A DNA stretch of 34,582 bases from a virus (taxonomy: Duplodnaviria; Heunggongvirae; Uroviricota; Caudoviricetes): IMG/VR virus record IMGVR_UViG_2623620495_000015; one strand, 5' to 3'. Below, piece after piece: positions 2,297 to 30,906 of the stretch (its first letter is position 1; each line of letters begins with the position of its first letter). The translations under genes and the position numbers were made by a program. The notes beneath the pieces are model-generated. The model was given only the letters and a program-made list of their open reading frames with translations. It had not been told where the DNA came from and did no database searches.

Positions 2297-3190
2297 ATGA
2301 GTTTAATTACGCAATTAAATGACGTAATGGCCCGTCGCGGCTATACGCAGACCCACGTAGCCCGTGCTATTGGGCGTAGTAACGCCGTTATTAACCAGTA
2401 TTTGCAGGGTAAATATCAGGGCGATATCGCTGATATCGAAGAGCGAATTTCTGCCTTTGTCAGCCGTGAACGGGAGAAAGAAAACAATCGCCGTGTTAAA
2501 GCAAATTTTGTTGCCACCAATATGGCTGCCAAAGGACTGGAAGTGCTGGCCTACGCTCACCTGGAATGTGAAATCTGTGTACTGTATGGCGCAGCAGGCC
2601 TTGGCAAAACAATGATTCTGCGTGAATACGCAGCCAGAAACCGGGATGCGGTCCTGATTGAGGCTGACCCGGGCTACACAGCCAGGACACTGCTTGAGGA
2701 GTTGTGCCGCCAGCTGGGGGTAAAGGTTCGCGGCAACATTCACGAACTGATTGATGCCTGTGTGCGCGAACTGGGTGATTCCGGTCGTCTGCTGATGGTG
2801 GACGAGGCTGAACTGCTACCCTATCGCGCACTGGAGGTTCTGCGCCGTCTGCATGACAAGGCGGGTATCGGGATTGTCCTGGCGGGTATGCCACGCCTTC
2901 TGATTAACCTCAAGGGGCGTCGTGGTGAGTTCGCCCAGTTATACAGCCGTGTTGCGCTGGCGCTTAACCTGGGCGACACGCTGTCGCAGGAAGATTTTAA
3001 CCAGATAGCCACAGAGCTGATGCCGGAAGCCGTTGAACCGGAAATCAGCGAGGCGCTTTACACGCGCTCGTTGGGTAATGCCCGCCGTCTGTTCAAACTG
3101 GCGCGCGGTGTGTACCGGATTTGTGATATCAGCGATGCCCCCGTCAGCGTGCAAGCTATTGATGATTTCGCAGAAATGTTAATTCACTGA
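2297..3190 (+). CDS. B: MuB-like AAA+ ATPase, transposition target DNA activator
   Basis: 297-aa ORF; Walker A GAAGLGKT; MVDEAE Walker B-like; N-terminal HTH-like segment; follows the transposase as in Mu. Confidence 0.85.
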   Translation: MSLITQLNDVMARRGYTQTHVARAIGRSNAVINQYLQGKYQGDIADIEERISAFVSREREKENNRRVKANFVATNMAAKGLEVLAYAHLECEICVLYGAAGLGKTMILREYAARNRDAVLIEADPGYTARTLLEELCRQLGVKVRGNIHELIDACVRELGDSGRLLMVDEAELLPYRALEVLRRLHDKAGIGIVLAGMPRLLINLKGRRGEFAQLYSRVALALNLGDTLSQEDFNQIATELMPEAVEPEISEALYTRSLGNARRLFKLARGVYRICDISDAPVSVQAIDDFAEMLIH

Positions 3191-3537: not shown

Positions 3538-3563
3538 TGCGGCAGAGAAATGTTAATTCACTG

Positions 3564-3803
3564 ATGGAGAACAAGATGATGGACAAGCAGACCATTAACG
3601 CCGTCCGTTCCCGTGCCCGTGTGGCCATCCATACCACCGGCGGTCGCGTAACGTGGCAGCATCACCGTTTACCTGTGGTTTATGCCTGCCCGCCCGTGGG
3701 TGGTCCTGTATGGCCGGTAACGGAAATCATCCAGACATTCAGCGGCCTGCGCCGCGTGGTTAAAACGTCCTGTATCGACGGCTGCACCGTCGTATGGCAA
3801 TAA
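3564..3803 (+). CDS. hypothetical early protein (79 aa)
   Basis: ATG overlapping the TGA of the repeat copy (TGATG); in frame with track ORF 3486..3803; Cys-rich. Confidence 0.4.
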   Translation: MENKMMDKQTINAVRSRARVAIHTTGGRVTWQHHRLPVVYACPPVGGPVWPVTEIIQTFSGLRRVVKTSCIDGCTVVWQ

Positions 3804-8814: not shown

Positions 8815-8997
8815 ATGAAAAACCGTAAGGCAAAAATTCTGTTAGCTCGCAGAAACGGTGTTGGGATCTGGCGATGGTTGAGGATTAGTAACAGACGAGT
8901 GAGGTTGACGGGGTGTTGCGGGGTGATGGGGCACAGTTGTTGCAAAAAGCCCAGCGCGGCGCAAAACCGCTGGAAGAATCACACTAACGCAAAGTAA
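8815..8997 (+). CDS. doubtful small basic ORF (60 aa)
   Basis: ATG with AGGAG RBS, but extremely K/R-rich with CC..CC; may be non-coding. Confidence 0.2.
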   Translation: MKNRKAKILLARRNGVGIWRWLRISNRRVRLTGCCGVMGHSCCKKPSAAQNRWKNHTNAK

Positions 8998-9016
8998 TTA
9001 AATAATAACCAATAAC

Positions 9017-9040
9017 AGACCAAAACATATGTTTTGGTCT
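9017..9040. repeat. perfect 24-bp palindrome AGACCAAAACATATGTTTTGGTCT, with a third half-site GTTTTGGTC at 9053-9061
   Basis: Read directly from the sequence; lies just upstream of the ATG at 9065. Confidence 0.7.
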
Positions 9041-9064
9041 GCCAAAAGTAGTGTTTTGGTCATT

Positions 9065-9343
9065 ATGAAGATTGAACAAATCGGAATGGCAGCCTTCCGG
9101 CAACAGGCTGAAAGCGGTGGCGTGGATGAGTTCGTCGTGCAGCGGTTCGGTGGTGTATATCACCTCTTCGCTGTGAATCGCCGCGCCGGGGTGTCCTATT
9201 TTCTACAGGAACGCCGTGGCGATTACAAGACGTGGCTGTCTCTTGATCGTGCCGCTGCGTTCCTGTCAGGGATTGGCGTTTCACGTTTTACCGTGCGTTT
9301 TGAGGATAACAAACATGCTGAAAAAGATGATCGGAGCCATTAA
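9065..9343 (+). CDS. hypothetical protein (92 aa)
   Basis: Internal ATG of track ORF 9029..9343; overlaps the gemA start by 29 nt. Confidence 0.4.
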   Translation: MKIEQIGMAAFRQQAESGGVDEFVVQRFGGVYHLFAVNRRAGVSYFLQERRGDYKTWLSLDRAAAFLSGIGVSRFTVRFEDNKHAEKDDRSH

Positions 9344-9713
9344 AGCCGGTCAGGCGTATCTGGGGTGGGATGATGCCCTTTATCGCCAGACGCTGGCCCG
9401 CCTGACAGGTAAAACCAGCACCACTCGCTGCAACCTCGATGAACTGCGCATCATCCGGGAATATATGCACGAACAGGGATTCCCGCGTAAAGCGCCCACC
9501 GGTAAAGGTCGCCGTCCCCGTGTTGCAATGAGCAGAAAATCGGTATTATCAAAAATTGAAGCGTTGCTGGCTGATGCCGGTCGTTCCTGGGGGTATGCGG
9601 AAGGACTGGCATCTCACATGTATAAGCAACATGTGATCGAATGGCTGACGGATGAACAGCTTTTCGGGGTGATGGTGGCGCTGGTTAAAGATTCAAGAAG
9701 GAGGAGTAAATGA
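9315..9713 (+). CDS. gemA: GemA-like protein (Mu gp16 family)
   Basis: ATG with GAGG RBS (track ORF 9216..9713 begins earlier at a non-ATG codon); MLKKMIGAIKAGQAYLGWDDALYRQTLARLTGKTS... matches the Mu gp16/GemA family from memory. Confidence 0.65.
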   Translation: MLKKMIGAIKAGQAYLGWDDALYRQTLARLTGKTSTTRCNLDELRIIREYMHEQGFPRKAPTGKGRRPRVAMSRKSVLSKIEALLADAGRSWGYAEGLASHMYKQHVIEWLTDEQLFGVMVALVKDSRRRSK

Positions 9714-10213
9714 TTAAAAAACGGTATTTTCTTTTAGTGGCGTTCATTTTGTCTTTTCCTGCCGTTGCTGAATGGCACACATGGGTACAAAAAGATGCTT
9801 TTGATGATCAACAAACAGCCATGATGGTGGGTATTGGAACAATGGATTTTGGGATTGCTTTAGACTGTTCGAATGACTCACTATTTGCTGGTATTACAAA
9901 AGAAACAGATAAAGTTAACATTGCGTTATTCGGTTCATCAAAAGATTTAATATTTAGGATAGACGAATTTCCAGCAGTAAAGACCACAGGGGTACTCGCT
10001 GCACGAAATGAAAAAATGTATATCTATAAAATAGAGGACAAACAAAAAATCAAAGAGTTGTTATCTTATCTTCGAAAAGCCCAAAAACGTGTTTTAGCTG
10101 GTGTAAAAGAACCGAGTGAAGAACGAGGCGCATCGTTTAATGTAACACCGACAGGTTCAACAACCGCTGTTAATAAATTTATCAAAGCCTGTAACATTAA
10201 GATTCCAGAGTAA
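9710..10213 (+). CDS. secreted/periplasmic protein of unknown function (167 aa), AT-rich moron
   Basis: Strong RBS GAAGGAGGAG; Sec-type signal peptide MIKKRYFLLVAFILSFPAVA/EW; GC content visibly far below flanking phage genes; own terminator downstream. Confidence 0.6.
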   Translation: MIKKRYFLLVAFILSFPAVAEWHTWVQKDAFDDQQTAMMVGIGTMDFGIALDCSNDSLFAGITKETDKVNIALFGSSKDLIFRIDEFPAVKTTGVLAARNEKMYIYKIEDKQKIKELLSYLRKAQKRVLAGVKEPSEERGASFNVTPTGSTTAVNKFIKACNIKIPE

Positions 10214-10223
10214 CTTAATAGCC

Positions 10224-10249
10224 GCCCCTGCCATGTAGGGGCTTTTTTT
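10224..10249 (+). terminator. intrinsic terminator after the secreted-protein gene
   Basis: GCCCCT (10224-10229), loop GCCATGT, AGGGGC (10237-10242), then T7 run (10243-10249). Confidence 0.6.
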
Positions 10250-10255
10250 GTGGTC

Positions 10256-10283
10256 TGTACAGGCGATCATGTATGGCTATAAT
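10256..10283 (+). promoter_or_regulatory. candidate sigma70 promoter upstream of the Mor/C-family gene
   Basis: -10 TATAAT at 10278-10283; 16-nt spacer; -35-like TGTACA at 10256-10261. Confidence 0.35.
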
Positions 10284-10312
10284 AACAGTAAGTTACTACC
10301 GGAGACGCCATC

Positions 10313-10780
10313 ATGCAGACCTTCAGTGAAACAGATCTTCGCGATGCGCAGGCACTGCTGCCCGATTCCGTGCAGCAACTGATTAGCGTGATTGGCTTCC
10401 CCGCCCTGACCCGGTTGATTCGTTCTTTTGGTGGCGTGACGTTAAGTGGTAAAACCGGCGCACACGCCGAACGCACCGGCGGTGTCCATGCCCTGTTACA
10501 TGACGTGCTGACCGAAGACGAAATCAACAAACTGATCCGCTTTCTTGGCGGTGCTCCGTTTTACATCCCCCGTTGCGATCATGCGTTACGTGCCCTGCGT
10601 AACACCCGTTTTATGGCTGATTTACAGCAGCATGTAAAAGACGGGTGCTCACACCGGCAGGCGCTGGCGCTGCTCTGTCCCCGCTACGGGATTTCAGACC
10701 GGTATGCATGGCAACTGATACACCGACGACAAAAACAGACTTCGCTGAAAAGCCCCACCCAGGTGGGGCTTTTTGATTAA
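10313..10780 (+). CDS. Mor/C-family transcriptional activator
   Basis: 155-aa ORF with GGAG RBS; C-terminal region with FYIPR motif and HTH-like segment resembles Mu Mor/C (memory); sits after gemA as in Mu. Confidence 0.7.
   Translation: MQTFSETDLRDAQALLPDSVQQLISVIGFPALTRLIRSFGGVTLSGKTGAHAERTGGVHALLHDVLTEDEINKLIRFLGGAPFYIPRCDHALRALRNTRFMADLQQHVKDGCSHRQALALLCPRYGISDRYAWQLIHRRQKQTSLKSPTQVGLFD
10751..10775 (+). terminator. intrinsic terminator overlapping the 3' end of the Mor/C-family gene
   Basis: GCCCCAC (10752-10758), loop CCAG, GTGGGGC (10763-10769), then T5. Confidence 0.5.
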
Positions 10781-10807: not shown

Positions 10808-11095
10808 ATGATGAGTTCTGACACCAATATCGACTACGCAGCACTCGGTGAATATACCGCATTTTCAGACAAGGCCCGGGATGCAGCCCGTCGCCGACAT
10901 GCTGAGATGTGTAATTTATCCAGTTATCTGGCGAGACAGGCCCAAAGCCCGGAGTCAGAAACGAATCATAATGAAGTGCTGTCAGCCGTAAACAGGATGC
11001 TGGACGCAGAACGGGAAATGCGTAATGCCGTGGAAAGAGCTAACCTGTTGGCGCGGGCATGTTATAAGCCACCATTAAAACTCGCTTCCCTTTAA
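10808..11095 (+). CDS. hypothetical protein (95 aa)
   Basis: Strong RBS AAGGAG 6 nt upstream of ATG; no recognisable domain. Confidence 0.4.
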   Translation: MMSSDTNIDYAALGEYTAFSDKARDAARRRHAEMCNLSSYLARQAQSPESETNHNEVLSAVNRMLDAEREMRNAVERANLLARACYKPPLKLASL

Positions 11096-11122
11096 CCCAT
11101 CCAGATAATCAACCTGCCGGGG

Positions 11123-11135
11123 GTGCTGAACACCC
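11123..11135 (+). promoter_or_regulatory. candidate late-promoter activator site 1 (GTGCTGAACACCC), upstream of the lysis cassette
   Basis: Exact 13-mer also at 18545-18557 and 30503-30515; sites 1 and 2 also share CAGTACCC downstream. Confidence 0.5.
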
Positions 11136-11282
11136 CCAGCAGTACCCACCACACCAGACCGTTTACCCTGTCCACTCAGACCACAAGGCACCTTAAGGGA
11201 TAGCGCCCTGCAAAAGGCTTTTGTGCCTTTGACAGGGTGTTATTTACGGGCCGTCAGTGGCTCAGATTTACAGGAGAAACTC

Positions 11283-11675
11283 ATGTCTGAACCCTTATCA
11301 GGCGGCGGAGCTGTGGCAGTCACCATCGGTGGTGCCAGTGTGTTTGGCCTTCTCACCAATACCGATTTCGGGGTCGTGGTGGGCGCGTTTGCCGGGGCGC
11401 TTTTTGTTGTCACGCAGCAGAAAGAAATCCCGGTCTGGCGAATGGCCATCCACCTGCTCGTCGCGTTTGTGGTTGGCGTTCTGGGGGCTGGCGTGGCTGC
11501 GTCACTGATGCAGTGGCTGACCCACTACAACGACAAGCCGCTAGATGCATTGTGTGCGGTCGGTGTCTCGGCGCTCTCAATCAAGATTCTGACGTTTATT
11601 TATAAACAGGATATTTCATCGCTGTTTGGCCTGTTTTCACGGCTGCGCGGCGGAGGGGGTGAAAATGGTAAGTAG
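11283..11675 (+). CDS. putative holin (130 aa, multi-pass membrane protein)
   Basis: ATG with AGGAG RBS; about three hydrophobic segments; first gene of the lysis cassette. Confidence 0.5.
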   Translation: MSEPLSGGGAVAVTIGGASVFGLLTNTDFGVVVGAFAGALFVVTQQKEIPVWRMAIHLLVAFVVGVLGAGVAASLMQWLTHYNDKPLDALCAVGVSALSIKILTFIYKQDISSLFGLFSRLRGGGGENGK

Positions 11676-11961
11676 CGTTGCCGGCATTGTTAACGTCTGG
11701 CTGTGTGTCGCCATTGTGTTCGGGTTGTTCGTGTACCGCCGTAAAGGGGCTGTTCATAAACCTGCGGTCACCTGGGTGGCGTACTGGCTGATGCTCTGGT
11801 ACGCCATCATCCCGTTCCGCTGGTTGTTTGGTACGTACACCCACTCCAGCTGGCTGGTTGTGGCGCTTAATCTGGTGTTCTGTGCGCTCATCGTGTGGGC
11901 GCACGGGAATTTGTCGAAAATCCTTTCGTTACTGAGGTATCCATATGAAATCAAAAGATGA
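11665..11961 (+). CDS. small membrane protein (98 aa), holin/antiholin-like partner
   Basis: ATG 7 nt after GGAGGG; two to three hydrophobic helices; overlaps neighbours at both ends. Confidence 0.45.
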   Translation: MVSSVAGIVNVWLCVAIVFGLFVYRRKGAVHKPAVTWVAYWLMLWYAIIPFRWLFGTYTHSSWLVVALNLVFCALIVWAHGNLSKILSLLRYPYEIKR

Positions 11962-12490
11962 AATCTTTGACAGCGTTCTGGGTAAAGAAGGCGGTTACGT
12001 CAATCACCCGGATGATAAAGGTGGCCCGACCAAATGGGGAATTACGGAAAAAGTCGCCCGCGCTCACGGATACCGTGGCGATATGCGCGATCTAACCCGC
12101 GAACAGGCGCTGGACATCCTTGAAGCCGATTACTGGTATGGCCCGCGATTTGACCAGGTCGCCGCGTTATCCTCTGATATTGCCGCAGAGCTGTGTGATA
12201 CCGGTGTGAATATGGGGCCAACCGTGGCGTCCAGAATGCTTCAGCGCTGGCTGAATGTGTTCAATCTGCGCGGCAGGATGTATCCCGATATGGATGCAGA
12301 CGGGCGCATCGGGCCTCGTACTATCAGTGCATTGCGCGCCTTCCTGAATTATCGCGGTCAGGACGGCGAACGGGTGATGCTGAAGGCCCTGAACTGCACG
12401 CAGGGTGAGCGCTATCTGGAACTGGCAGAGAAACGCGAAGCCAACGAATCGTTTGTTTATGGCTGGCTGGAGGAGCGCGTGGCGGTATGA
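11945..12490 (+). CDS. endolysin, glycoside hydrolase family 108-like with C-terminal peptidoglycan-binding region
   Basis: N-terminal EGGYVNHPDDKGGPTKWGIT is the hallmark GH108 motif (TtsA-like muramidases). Confidence 0.8.
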   Translation: MKSKDEIFDSVLGKEGGYVNHPDDKGGPTKWGITEKVARAHGYRGDMRDLTREQALDILEADYWYGPRFDQVAALSSDIAAELCDTGVNMGPTVASRMLQRWLNVFNLRGRMYPDMDADGRIGPRTISALRAFLNYRGQDGERVMLKALNCTQGERYLELAEKREANESFVYGWLEERVAV

Positions 12491-18481: not shown

Positions 18482-18506
18482 CGTTTTTAAAAGGGTTTTA
18501 AAAACG
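18482..18506. repeat. inverted repeat CGTTTTTAAAA-GGG-TTTTAAAAACG (11-bp arms) in the G-I intergenic region
   Basis: Read directly; AT-rich palindrome about 40 bp upstream of late motif site 2. Confidence 0.7.
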
Positions 18507-18544
18507 GTTTTATTTCCCCTTTTATCCTTTCCCGTTATGGCAGG

Positions 18545-18557
18545 GTGCTGAACACCC
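18545..18557 (+). promoter_or_regulatory. candidate late-promoter activator site 2 (GTGCTGAACACCC), upstream of the head protease/scaffold gene
   Basis: Exact 13-mer; followed by TCCACAGTACCCC, resembling site 1. Confidence 0.5.
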
Positions 18558-18589
18558 TCCACAGTACCCCGTGTTCCCCTTCCGTCATC

Positions 18590-19714
18590 ATGCCGCGTAT
18601 GAAGATGAACATTGCGGCATTAAGCCTCGAAATTACTAAAGCAACCCACAGCGAAATCCAGCTGTTTCCGGCGGGCGAGTTCAGCGCGGTGGATGGTCGC
18701 CCACATACCGATGAAGTCGAAAGCGGTAAATGGGTGCTGACCGCTGAACTGGCCGCGCAGCTTGTCGCGCAGGTGGCCGCCCGTACCACGCCTTTTGTCA
18801 TTGATTACGAACATCAGACGCTGCGCGCCGTAAACAACGGCAAGCCCGCCCCGGCGGCGGGCTGGTTCAGCCAGGTGGAATGGCGTGAAGGTGTGGGCCT
18901 GTATGCCACCGGTGTGGAGTGGACGGAGAACGCGGCGGCCATGATTGCCGCCGGTGAGTACAAATTTATTTCCCCTGTTTTTGCCTACAACAAGCGCGGC
19001 GAAGTGCTGGAGCTGTTACACGCTGCGCTGACCAATACCCCGGCGCTCGACGGTATGGACGCGGTCATGCTGGCTGCGGCCAGCCGTCTGGCGAGTCTGT
19101 CAACTGAAACGGAGACCACAACAGTGGATGAAGAACTGTTAAACGATTTGCTGTCCAGTCTGCGCTGGACGCTGAACCTCCCGGCAACCTCAACGCCGGA
19201 AGACATTAAAAATGAGCTGCAAAAAATTGTTGATGCCATCTCCGGCGGCAAAGGAACGGCAGCGGCTTCTGTTGGTCTGCTGGCCCTGCTGAATCAGAAA
19301 GACGAGCAAATCGCCAGCCTGTCAGCAAATGCTTATGACCCGTCAAAACACATTTCCCTTGCTGCCTTTGAAGAACTTCAGGGGCGTTATGCCGCACTGG
19401 CGCAACAGTCCGGTGAGGCCGAAGCCGGGGCACTGATTCAGGCGGCGCTGTCTGACGGGCGACTGCTTCCGGCGCAGGAAGACTGGGCGAAAGATTACGC
19501 CAGCCGCGATATCAACGGCTTTAAGTCCTGGCTGGAGAACGCGCCGAAACTTGTTGCGCTCAGTCAGACCCAGACCGGCGGCAAGCCACCCAAAACGCCG
19601 TCGCCTGCCCCGGCGCAGATTAAAACCGGCGATGACGTCGATGTCGATATCGCCATTTGTTCCATGATGGGCGTTGATCCAGAGGATGTCGCCCGTTACG
19701 CAGGAGATGAGTAA
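18590..19714 (+). CDS. head maturation protease/scaffold (Mu I/gp32-like)
   Basis: About 375 aa; N-terminus NIAALSLEITKATHSEIQLFPAGEF typical of Mu I-family proteases (memory); ATG choice among 18590/18599/18605 uncertain. Confidence 0.7.
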   Translation: MPRMKMNIAALSLEITKATHSEIQLFPAGEFSAVDGRPHTDEVESGKWVLTAELAAQLVAQVAARTTPFVIDYEHQTLRAVNNGKPAPAAGWFSQVEWREGVGLYATGVEWTENAAAMIAAGEYKFISPVFAYNKRGEVLELLHAALTNTPALDGMDAVMLAAASRLASLSTETETTTVDEELLNDLLSSLRWTLNLPATSTPEDIKNELQKIVDAISGGKGTAAASVGLLALLNQKDEQIASLSANAYDPSKHISLAAFEELQGRYAALAQQSGEAEAGALIQAALSDGRLLPAQEDWAKDYASRDINGFKSWLENAPKLVALSQTQTGGKPPKTPSPAPAQIKTGDDVDVDIAICSMMGVDPEDVARYAGDE

Positions 19715-29852: not shown

Positions 29853-30502
29853 TGTGGGACAAGGTTAATCAGCGCATACAGCAGGCACTGGCCGCCGTTC
29901 GCCAGGCATTCAGGGTGGTGACCGGTACGGTGGACAGTTCGACCAAAGTACAGCTACTTCAGCTGAACGGGCTGGCAGGCGAACAGCTGGACGGTGCGGA
30001 GTATTTTCAGCATTACGGCCTCACCACATCCCCGCCGCCCGGCTCGATGGGTATTGCCGTTCCGCTGAATGGTAATACCTCCCATACCGTCGTCGTGGCC
30101 ACAGAGCACGGCGCATATCGCCTGACGGAACTGAAACCCGGCGAGGTGGCGCTGTATACCGACGAAGGCGCGAAAATCGTACTGAAGCGCGGGCGGGTTA
30201 TTGAGCATGAATGTGATGTTTATCGCGTGAAATGCAAACGCTATGAGGTTGAGGCAGAGGAGAACGCCGCATTCACGACACCGTTACTGACAGTCAGCGA
30301 TAAGCTGACTGTGGAAGGTAAAATCACCGGCAACGGTGGCATGGCCATCCGTGGAGGCAAGAAATACGCTGCCACCTTTGAAGGCAATATCAACCATGTG
30401 GGAGGTGTGATTACCTCCGTTGACGTCACCATTAATGGCGTTAAAATCGGAACACACAAACACGATACCCCTCACGGCATATCCGGCCTGCCGCATAATT
30501 AA
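29849..30502 (+). CDS. baseplate spike/assembly protein (Mu gp45, gpV-like)
   Basis: 217-aa ORF with ATGA overlap upstream. Confidence 0.7.
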   Translation: MMWDKVNQRIQQALAAVRQAFRVVTGTVDSSTKVQLLQLNGLAGEQLDGAEYFQHYGLTTSPPPGSMGIAVPLNGNTSHTVVVATEHGAYRLTELKPGEVALYTDEGAKIVLKRGRVIEHECDVYRVKCKRYEVEAEENAAFTTPLLTVSDKLTVEGKITGNGGMAIRGGKKYAATFEGNINHVGGVITSVDVTINGVKIGTHKHDTPHGISGLPHN

Positions 30503-30515
30503 GTGCTGAACACCC
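30503..30515 (+). promoter_or_regulatory. candidate late-promoter activator site 3 (GTGCTGAACACCC), between gp45-like and gp46-like genes
   Basis: Exact 13-mer starting 1 nt after the gp45 stop, about 40 nt upstream of the gp46 ATG. Confidence 0.45.
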
Positions 30516-30555
30516 TCACCTGATTCTGACCTGTCCATGCTGCCAGACTGGCGGC

Positions 30556-30906
30556 ATGGACCAGACGATTTCACCTGCAACCGGCGACTACGAACGCCGC
30601 CGGATTTATACACTCCATAACGCGGTTTATCTGCGACTGGCGACACCGCTTGGCAGTTACTGGGCGGATGCGTCGCTGGGGTCACGCCTGCACGAACTGA
30701 AGCGGAAAAAAGACGTTTCCCGTGTTCACAGGCTGGCGGCGCAGTATGCCAGCCAGGCACTTCAGCCCCTGCTTGATGACGGGCGGGCAAAATCCATTAC
30801 CGTTGACACGAAAGCGGGCCAGCGCGGCTGGCTGTTGCTGTTAATCACCGTCACGGATAACGCGGGCACACCGCAGACGTTTGAACACCCTGTGAGGATT
30901 ATGTAA
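30556..30906 (+). CDS. baseplate protein (Mu gp46-like)
   Basis: 116-aa ORF; position and recalled similarity to the GP46 family. Confidence 0.65.
   Translation: MDQTISPATGDYERRRIYTLHNAVYLRLATPLGSYWADASLGSRLHELKRKKDVSRVHRLAAQYASQALQPLLDDGRAKSITVDTKAGQRGWLLLLITVTDNAGTPQTFEHPVRIM

Follow-up and report, generated by a model that had tools for sequence, protein, structure and literature searches.

The three copies of the 13-bp motif GTGCTGAACACCC in the 34,582-bp window, that is, the whole stretch of DNA that was analysed, very probably serve as the upstream activator boxes for the three late promoters of the prophage, which are predicted to be of the Mor/C type. These promoters are a well-conserved and apparently undescribed counterpart of the C-dependent promoters of phage Mu, and as such they represent expected biology. 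The original prediction had read the copies as activator-dependent late promoters, and every computational test that was run agrees with this reading. The box, its spacing and the -10 element recur in about 14 diverged Mu-like prophages with activators 37-83% identical, and there they occupy the same three places: downstream of the Mor/C gene before the lysis genes, before the I protease gene, and in the gap between gp45 and gp46.

The window is a Mu-like prophage that encodes transposase A and B, GemA, one Mor-family gene, two holins and a GH108 endolysin, and further the terminase, portal, F, G, I protease, capsid, tail and baseplate proteins. The identities that had been proposed for the genes near the motifs are upheld by Pfam, which was run on a subset of the window proteins: it recognises the Mor family at 10313-10780, the holins, the Mu-like I protease and GP46, and it also identifies GH108 and Gp45 proteins. 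Prophages of about 96% identity occur in E. coli genomes, E2348/69 being one strain with such a relative, and a 10-kb query matched 163 genomes and was covered to at least 80% in 54. A near-identity search (megablast) of the phage collection returned only an unrelated 538-bp match. Relatives were found through the Mor-family protein, as loci from other genera with homologues 37-83% identical, and complete Mu-like phage genomes were added to them.

By homology with Mu C and Mor, a single Mor/C protein (10313-10780) would bind the box, centred at -43.5, as a dimer or tetramer in two adjacent major grooves. The bound activator would then bring sigma-70 RNA polymerase to a weak -10 element (nAnnnT, followed by G) that has no usable -35 element. 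In Mu, C and Mor recruit the sigma-70 holoenzyme in this way, from their box to a weak -10 element (PMC2582627; bioRxiv 10.1101/2025.05.02.651988). The first unit switched on would comprise the lysis, terminase and head genes; the second, the I protease, capsid and tail genes; and the third, gp46 for the baseplate together with the tail-fibre genes. That the 10313-10780 protein binds the boxes, the transcription starts 7 nt past the -10 elements (11176, 18598/18599 and 30556) and the timing of expression are what we infer from the sequence.

The three predicted promoters

Counting of GTGCTGAACACCC and its reverse complement over the 34,582-bp window gives exactly the three copies that had been claimed, at 11123-11135, 18545-18557 and 30503-30515, all on the + strand, in the same direction as the genes, with no match on the - strand. 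Over 100 dinucleotide-preserving shuffles there was no match at all, so that none is expected by chance and three are observed. The distances given earlier from motif to gene are also right: from the end of the motif to the ATG there are 148 nt for the holin gene (11283), 41 nt for the I protease gene (18599) and 40 nt for gp46 (30556). The element CAGTACCC, described as common to sites 1 and 2, is indeed present there, and only twice in the window, each time 4 nt past the motif.

Promoter 1 precedes the lysis operon and resembles Plys. Its activator box, GTGCTGAACACCCCCAGC (11123..11140, + strand), contains the exact 13-mer, occupies positions -53..-36 as counted from the -10 element, and ranks first with the position weight matrix (PWM), at 19.2 bits. 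The first copy of CAGTACCC (11140..11147, + strand), common to site 2, spans -36..-29, where a -35 element would lie. The -10 hexamer TACCCT with the following G lies at 11164..11170 (+ strand), and the start is predicted near 11176, which leaves a leader of about 107 nt to the holin ATG at 11283. The lysis cassette of two holins and the GH108 endolysin (11283..12490, + strand), identified by Pfam and by a relative's annotation, contains the first genes of this operon. In 11 lineages, the box is found at the corresponding place downstream of the Mor/C gene.

Box 1 is enclosed by a 29-bp near-perfect palindrome, CTGCCGGGGGTGC-TGA-ACACCCCCAGCAG (11114..11142), centred on G11128. In L001, the E. 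coli relative, the corresponding sequence (18890-18918) has arms that repeat perfectly over 12 bp. The palindrome is restricted to box 1 and to this lineage, since sites 2 and 3 have arms of 5 bp and 3 bp and distant relatives lack it. The predicted leader of the lysis transcript (11174-11285) folds unusually stably, at -43.1 kcal/mol with a z-score of -4.3. Comparable stability was not seen in the leaders of six relatives, and consequently the leader fold lies outside the conserved element.

Promoter 2 precedes the I protease and head operon and resembles PI. Its box, GTGCTGAACACCCTCCAC (18545..18562, + strand), contains the exact 13-mer and ranks third, at 18.1 bits. The second copy of CAGTACCC (18562..18569, + strand) again covers -36..-29, and the -10 hexamer CATCAT with its G lies at 18586..18592 (+ strand). 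The start is predicted at 18598-18599, on or 1 nt before the ATG of the Mu-like I protease/scaffold gene (18599..19714, + strand; Pfam Mu-like_Pro, 331.6 bits), the first gene of this unit. In the eleven loci listed, the distance from the T of the box to the I-protease ATG, or to the point where the tblastn match starts, is 46-50 nt, and in ten of them it is 49-50 nt; the Salmonella relative L023 fits the same arrangement.

Phased A/T tracts such as TTTTAAAAnGGTTTTAAAAACGG occur at 18484-18515, some 35-65 bp upstream of the I-gene box. Klebsiella, Haemophilus, Mannheimia and Salmonella relatives have similar tracts before their I promoter (L018, 17965-18000; L021, 18365-18405; L022, 17385-17425). 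Mu has a strong gyrase site in the gap between G and I; the tracts could be an UP element or a bend, or they could be tied to that site.

Promoter 3 serves gp46 and the baseplate and tail-fibre genes. Its box, GTGCTGAACACCCTCACC (30503..30520, + strand), begins directly after the gp45 stop codon (30500-30502) and ranks second, at 18.9 bits. The -10 hexamer CAGACT with its G (30544..30550, + strand) is preceded by TGC, in the manner of an extended -10 element (TGn), and the predicted start at 30556 is the A of the gp46 ATG. The baseplate gene gp46 (30556..30906, + strand; Pfam GP46, 67.8 bits) is the first of the unit. The predicted promoter takes up the whole 53-nt gap between gp45 and gp46. 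Six further phages carry the box in this gap, which measures 53 nt in five of them and 65 nt in the complete Klebsiella phage ST405-OXA48phi1.1. CAGACT, CACACT or CATCAT, followed by 6 nt and then ATG or GTG, is found in 8 of 8 loci, and in the six further phages TGn precedes the hexamer. A sigma-70-like promoter within gp45 (30420-30447) was considered as the driver of gp46 and rejected, as L029, L031 and L018 lack it and still have the box.

The messages of I and gp46 are probably leaderless, because the predicted starts fall at the start codons, no Shine-Dalgarno sequence precedes either start codon, and the distance from the -10 element to the start codon is a constant 6-7 nt in all relatives. 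The leader of Mu I, as calculated from the promoter oligonucleotides in PMC4461284, is merely 7 nt long.

The conserved unit across relatives

The 13-mer is the core of an 18-bp box, for which the consensus of the relatives is nnGCTGAACCCCCTCAnC (the family consensus is also written nnGCTGAACCCCCTCAGC) and which forms an imperfect dyad, GCTGA-N6-TCAGC. The window boxes read GCTGAACACCC(C/T)C(A/C)(G/A/C)C. Relatives were compared by a gapless alignment anchored on the T of TGAAC, with 31 sites from about 14 lineages; these sites are phylogenetically not fully independent. Every aligned site consists of a 12-bp core, TGAAC-n-CC-n-TCA, a 25-bp unconserved spacer and a -10-like hexamer. The unit that is conserved family-wide is therefore the 18-bp box together with the -10 hexamer at fixed spacing, the hexamer starting 37 nt after the T of TGAAC. 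Over the 31 sites, the box (-53..-36) carries a mean of 1.44 bits per position, compared with 0.19 for the upstream flank and 0.37 for the spacer, and the columns at -35..-30 hold 0.4-0.8 bits. Among relatives, the flanking sequence has been randomised while the box has been kept.

The position of the dyad relative to the -10 element is measured, its centre lying 31.5 bp upstream. With the inferred +1 put 7 nt past the -10 element, the dyad occupies -51..-36 with its centre at -43.5. A-11 and T-7 are the bases that matter most for recognition of a -10 element by sigma-70, and both are invariant in all 31 sites; G-6 is common. The hexamers of the relatives include TACACT, TATACT, TATGCT, TACGCT, TAATCT, GATAAT, CACAAT, CAGAAT and AATACT, and those of the window are TACCCT (site 1), CATCAT (site 2) and CAGACT (site 3). 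In a promoter scan, the PI site yielded no sigma-70 -35/-10 pair, and no such pair was listed for the other two -10 hexamers.

A PWM built from relatives only places the three window sites at ranks 1-3 among about 69,000 positions on both strands, with 18.1-19.2 bits. The next match in this ranking scores 13.4 bits, and the search for a fourth site in the window turned up none above 12.5 bits. The composite pattern has 14 matches in IMG/VR that sit 6-7 nt before I or gp46 homologues. In nearly every related locus it is the box pair itself that forms the longest exact direct repeat; its first member follows the Mor/C gene, and its second stands before I, at a distance of about 8 kb. Just past the box, Plys and PI of one and the same relative are also identical over about 8-10 bases.

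The exact 13-mer is a property of the window's lineage only. In a 96%-identical E. coli prophage with a 100% identical activator protein, the middle (I-gene) copy reads GTGCTGAACCCCC; it has C in place of A, as in GCTGAACCCCC, by which both the 13-mer and the GGGTG/CACCC symmetry are broken and the family consensus is kept. The 83% relative likewise carries C at the -44 position, and A at -44 recurs in an IMG/VR sub-lineage. Because the 96% relative, with its identical activator, and the 83% relative both carry C, A at -44 is a tolerated variant. The GGGTG/CACCC pattern that is visible in copies 1 and 2 was rejected as a conserved symmetry, being lineage-specific; the dyad of the family is GCTGA-N6-TCAGC.

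A fourth copy of the 10-mer TGAACACCCT is present at 30882-30891, in the last codons of gp46 and 15 nt before the start of gp47. It was rejected as a further site and is probably coincidental, since it has no -10 element at the fixed spacing and a low matrix score.

The activator gene and rival explanations

The window's only Mor/C protein is most likely the binder of the boxes, a link based on its homology with Mu, on its being the only family member present, and on the geometry. The gene (10313..10780, + strand) encodes 155 aa and matches the Pfam family Mor (PF08765) with 29.1 bits at a cut-off of 24.9; no second Mor/C paralogue was found in the window. With a profile built from 15 homologues, the Mu C chains 9l0x/9vw8 are matched at E=9e-4, whereas Mor (1rr7) reaches only E=0.78, which puts the protein closer to Mu C than to Mor. 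The segment LGGAPFYIPRCD aligns with LGGRQFYIPCGD of Mu C, where the FYIPR beta-strand linker is followed by the C-terminal helix-turn-helix (helices 114-125 and 129-145). The C-terminus, QVGLFD, fits the clamp-binding motif QxxLF, and Q150, L153 and F154 are nearly invariant in the 15 homologues. QxxLF is kept in almost all homologues examined, including first paralogues and SuMu-type proteins. In Mu C, the C-terminal clamp-binding motif is QPDLF and is needed for function, and clamp binding has been claimed to be general in the Mor/C family (PMC12867686), with which the conservation of QxxLF agrees.

No residue-to-base covariation was found between the recognition helix and box type, and the predicted helix, SDRxxW, hardly varies from one box type to another. 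The correspondence between protein clusters and box types is loose, and Lonepinella L013 is an exception to it: its protein groups with SuMu, yet its box has arms of the enterobacterial type (GCTGA/TCA) and a G-rich spacer.

Upstream of the activator gene, a strong intrinsic terminator (10224-10249) is followed by a near-consensus sigma-70 promoter, TGTACA-16-TATAAT (10256-10283). This layout of terminator and sigma-70-like promoter is kept in the 66% relative (Salmonella, L023) and in the 83% relative (L026). No activator box precedes the activator gene of the window. The last codons of the activator gene overlap with a hairpin at 10747-10774 whose 12-bp stem is AAAAGCCCCACC/GGTGGGGCTTTT (-20.6 kcal/mol, z -3.75). 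It resembles a bidirectional terminator, but a simple scan did not report it. Between this hairpin and promoter 1 lies a 95-aa ORF (10808-11095) with no Pfam match, and ORFs of 95 aa and 92 aa occupy the same position in L023 and L026.

Several other explanations of the three copies have to be weighed against Mor/C-dependent promoters. It is improbable that the boxes, while belonging to late promoters, are read by a factor other than the Mor/C protein, such as GemA, the DUF1804 protein, an unnamed early protein or an ECF-like sigma factor with a GAAC -35 element. Such a reader would accord with the recognition helix not covarying with box type, and in its ECF form with the presence in the box of GAAC, the typical core of an ECF -35 element. 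However, nothing is conserved 16-17 nt after GAAC, at the place expected of an ECF -10 element, and the element that is conserved lies 37 nt after the T and is of the sigma-70 type, nAnnnT. No sigma factor is listed in the annotation of the near-identical E. coli prophage, no second Mor/C gene was found in the window, a subset of whose proteins was run against Pfam, and the geometry of the boxes equals that of C and Mor sites; in addition, Mu C alone with the sigma-70 holoenzyme suffices for activation (PMC2582627). A host regulator of the CRP/FNR type, acting by class II activation, is suggested by the resemblance of TGA-N6-TCA to TGTGA-N6-TCACA, by invariant TGA/TCA arms with the 6-bp spacing of CRP, and by a location near the class II position. 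This reading is nevertheless highly implausible: only 3 of 5 bases match per half-site, positions -51/-50 keep GC rather than TG, the C-rich spacer shows conservation of its own (1.2-2 bits), in contrast to CRP sites, and the centre lies at -43.5 and not at -41.5. Pasteurellaceae relatives also have an unrelated dyad at the same places. A clade-specific box sequence at a constant position is the pattern expected of a phage-encoded specificity factor, which argues against CRP.

The copies are also very unlikely to be something other than promoters, whether recombination or module-boundary repeats, hairpins acting as terminators or in processing, or bystanders of a nearby constitutive sigma-70 promoter that drives the genes. 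Copy 1 does lie within the 29-bp palindrome, which the scan flagged as terminator-like on the - strand, and a TTGACG-16-TAAAAT match is located 60 bp upstream of copy 3. On the + strand, however, no T-run follows the hairpin, the long palindrome is confined to copy 1 and is not found in relatives, and an Rfam scan of the whole window gave no match at the gathering threshold. The sigma-70-like match in gp45 is missing from the three relatives named above, although they retain the box. A fixed 37-nt spacing to the invariant A-11 and T-7, together with a fixed 6-7 nt to the start codons, needs a promoter. As for chance repetition of the 13-mer, in favour of which there is only the small copy number, it is refuted for practical purposes by the absence of even one match in the 100 shuffles and by conservation across lineages at syntenic positions. 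Activation of three late promoters by the Mor/C protein thus remains the preferred reading.

Relation to Mu and to other clades

In their overall architecture, the window promoters resemble the late promoters of Mu, namely Plys, PI, PP and Pmom, which have a -10 element, no -35 element and an activator of the Mor/C family. For Mu C, the reported site is an imperfect dyad of 16 bp with its centre at -43.5, overlapping the -35 region, in promoters with a -10 but no -35 element (PMC2582627). Two promoter positions are shared, before the lysis genes and directly before I, and Mu Plys and PI have a 10-bp match just downstream of the box (PMC4461284). The box itself differs, GCTGAAC(C/A)CCCTCAGC-like in the window against TTAT-N5-6-ATAA for Mu C (PMC12867686). 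As the window boxes do not fit TTAT-N5-6-ATAA, they are not Mu C sites, and the architecture is the same while the specificity differs; the original suggestion of a distinct specificity therefore holds.

The suggestion that the placement mirrors Mu is correct for copies 1 and 2 (Plys and PI). Copy 3 is not at the PP position: it lies in the gp45/gp46 gap, whereas PP of Mu and D108 lies inside N, about 350 bp upstream of P. In Mu and D108, gp45 and gp46 overlap and leave no gap. Given the location of PP in N and this overlap, the third promoter of the window is analogous to PP in its role and is placed at a different gene junction. The window has three promoters compared with four in Mu, and no mom-type promoter was found in it. 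A single activator gene stands in the place of the Mu cascade of Mor and then C, and it is preceded by a terminator and a sigma-70-like promoter instead of the Mor-dependent Pm. With the Pm/Mor system, the window shares the protein family and the activator position of -43.5; it differs in having neither a box before the activator gene nor a second paralogue, and in a profile match to Mor of only E=0.78.

Two Mor/C paralogues are present in Xenorhabdus, Photorhabdus and Morganella relatives (L005, L006, L009 and L011, at about 8920-10460), one right after GemA and the other about 640 bp downstream. The second is preceded by the box CCACTGAACCCCTTCAAC and AATACT, with a terminator hairpin just past the predicted start. 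Judged by its sequence, this arrangement is Pm-like and a predicted Mu-like cascade of Mor and then C, with almost identical boxes for its two tiers, the difference being at -52/-51. A simplified late programme can be put forward tentatively, with somewhat more doubt than confidence: one C-like activator with a clamp-binding tail would serve three promoters, the I and gp46 operons would be leaderless in every member examined, and in the two-paralogue relatives both activators would read near-identical boxes told apart only by -52/-51 (CA versus YG).

Haemophilus phage SuMu and Mannheimia phage vB_MhM_3927AP2 carry the dyad TGTGGAAG-N2-CTTCC (GGAAG-N2-CTTCC) instead of the window box. The three places, the centre and the spacing to TAnnnT are the same as in the window, and the gp46 ATG lies 6 nt past the -10 element. 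The activators of these two phages are 33-36% identical to that of the window.

A more remote parallel is offered by P2 Ogr and P4 Delta, in which a small phage activator binds a short dyad located upstream of a number of late operons in which a good -35 element is missing. These activators are zinc-finger proteins, and their dyad, TGT-N12-ACA, is centred near -55. They belong to a protein family unrelated to that of the window activator, and the likeness is an analogy only.

The kind of element is known, namely Mor/C-dependent late promoters, and what appears to be new is a well-defined box specificity. No description of these boxes or of the gp45/gp46 promoter was found in the searchable literature, the coverage of which is incomplete and makes this weak evidence of novelty. 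In the public annotations of related phages, nothing but generic matches to the sigma-70 consensus is marked. To our knowledge, late promoters have been characterised among Mu-like prophages only in phage Mu itself. The present results provide a sequence-level definition of late promoters for a widespread Mu-like group found in Escherichia, Salmonella, Klebsiella, Serratia, Morganella, Xenorhabdus, Photorhabdus and Pasteurellaceae. With the rule of box plus spacing, late operons can be annotated, and prophages with a common activator specificity can be predicted. Structures of the Mor and C activation complexes exist, and natural variants with different boxes and the same geometry can help in studies of DNA reading by Mor/C tetramers.

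Tenebrionibacter intestinalis (L007, 6300-10460) encodes a Mor/C homologue, 51% identical to that of the window, at the end of a P4-like island with Toprim_3 and DUF927 primase genes. The island adjoins genes for cation efflux (fieF-like), phosphofructokinase and a solute-binding protein. Just upstream of the homologue there is an 18-bit box with TACCGT at the correct spacing. The island may be a satellite that is switched on by a Mu-like helper or that switches one on.

The window also contains other exact repeats. The 19-mer AGAAATGTTAATTCACTGA occurs at 3172-3190, at the end of the B gene, and again 374 bp downstream at 3546-3564, and the 16-bp palindrome CTGCGTGAATACGCAG is found twice in the transposase gene region, at 624-639 and 2618-2633.
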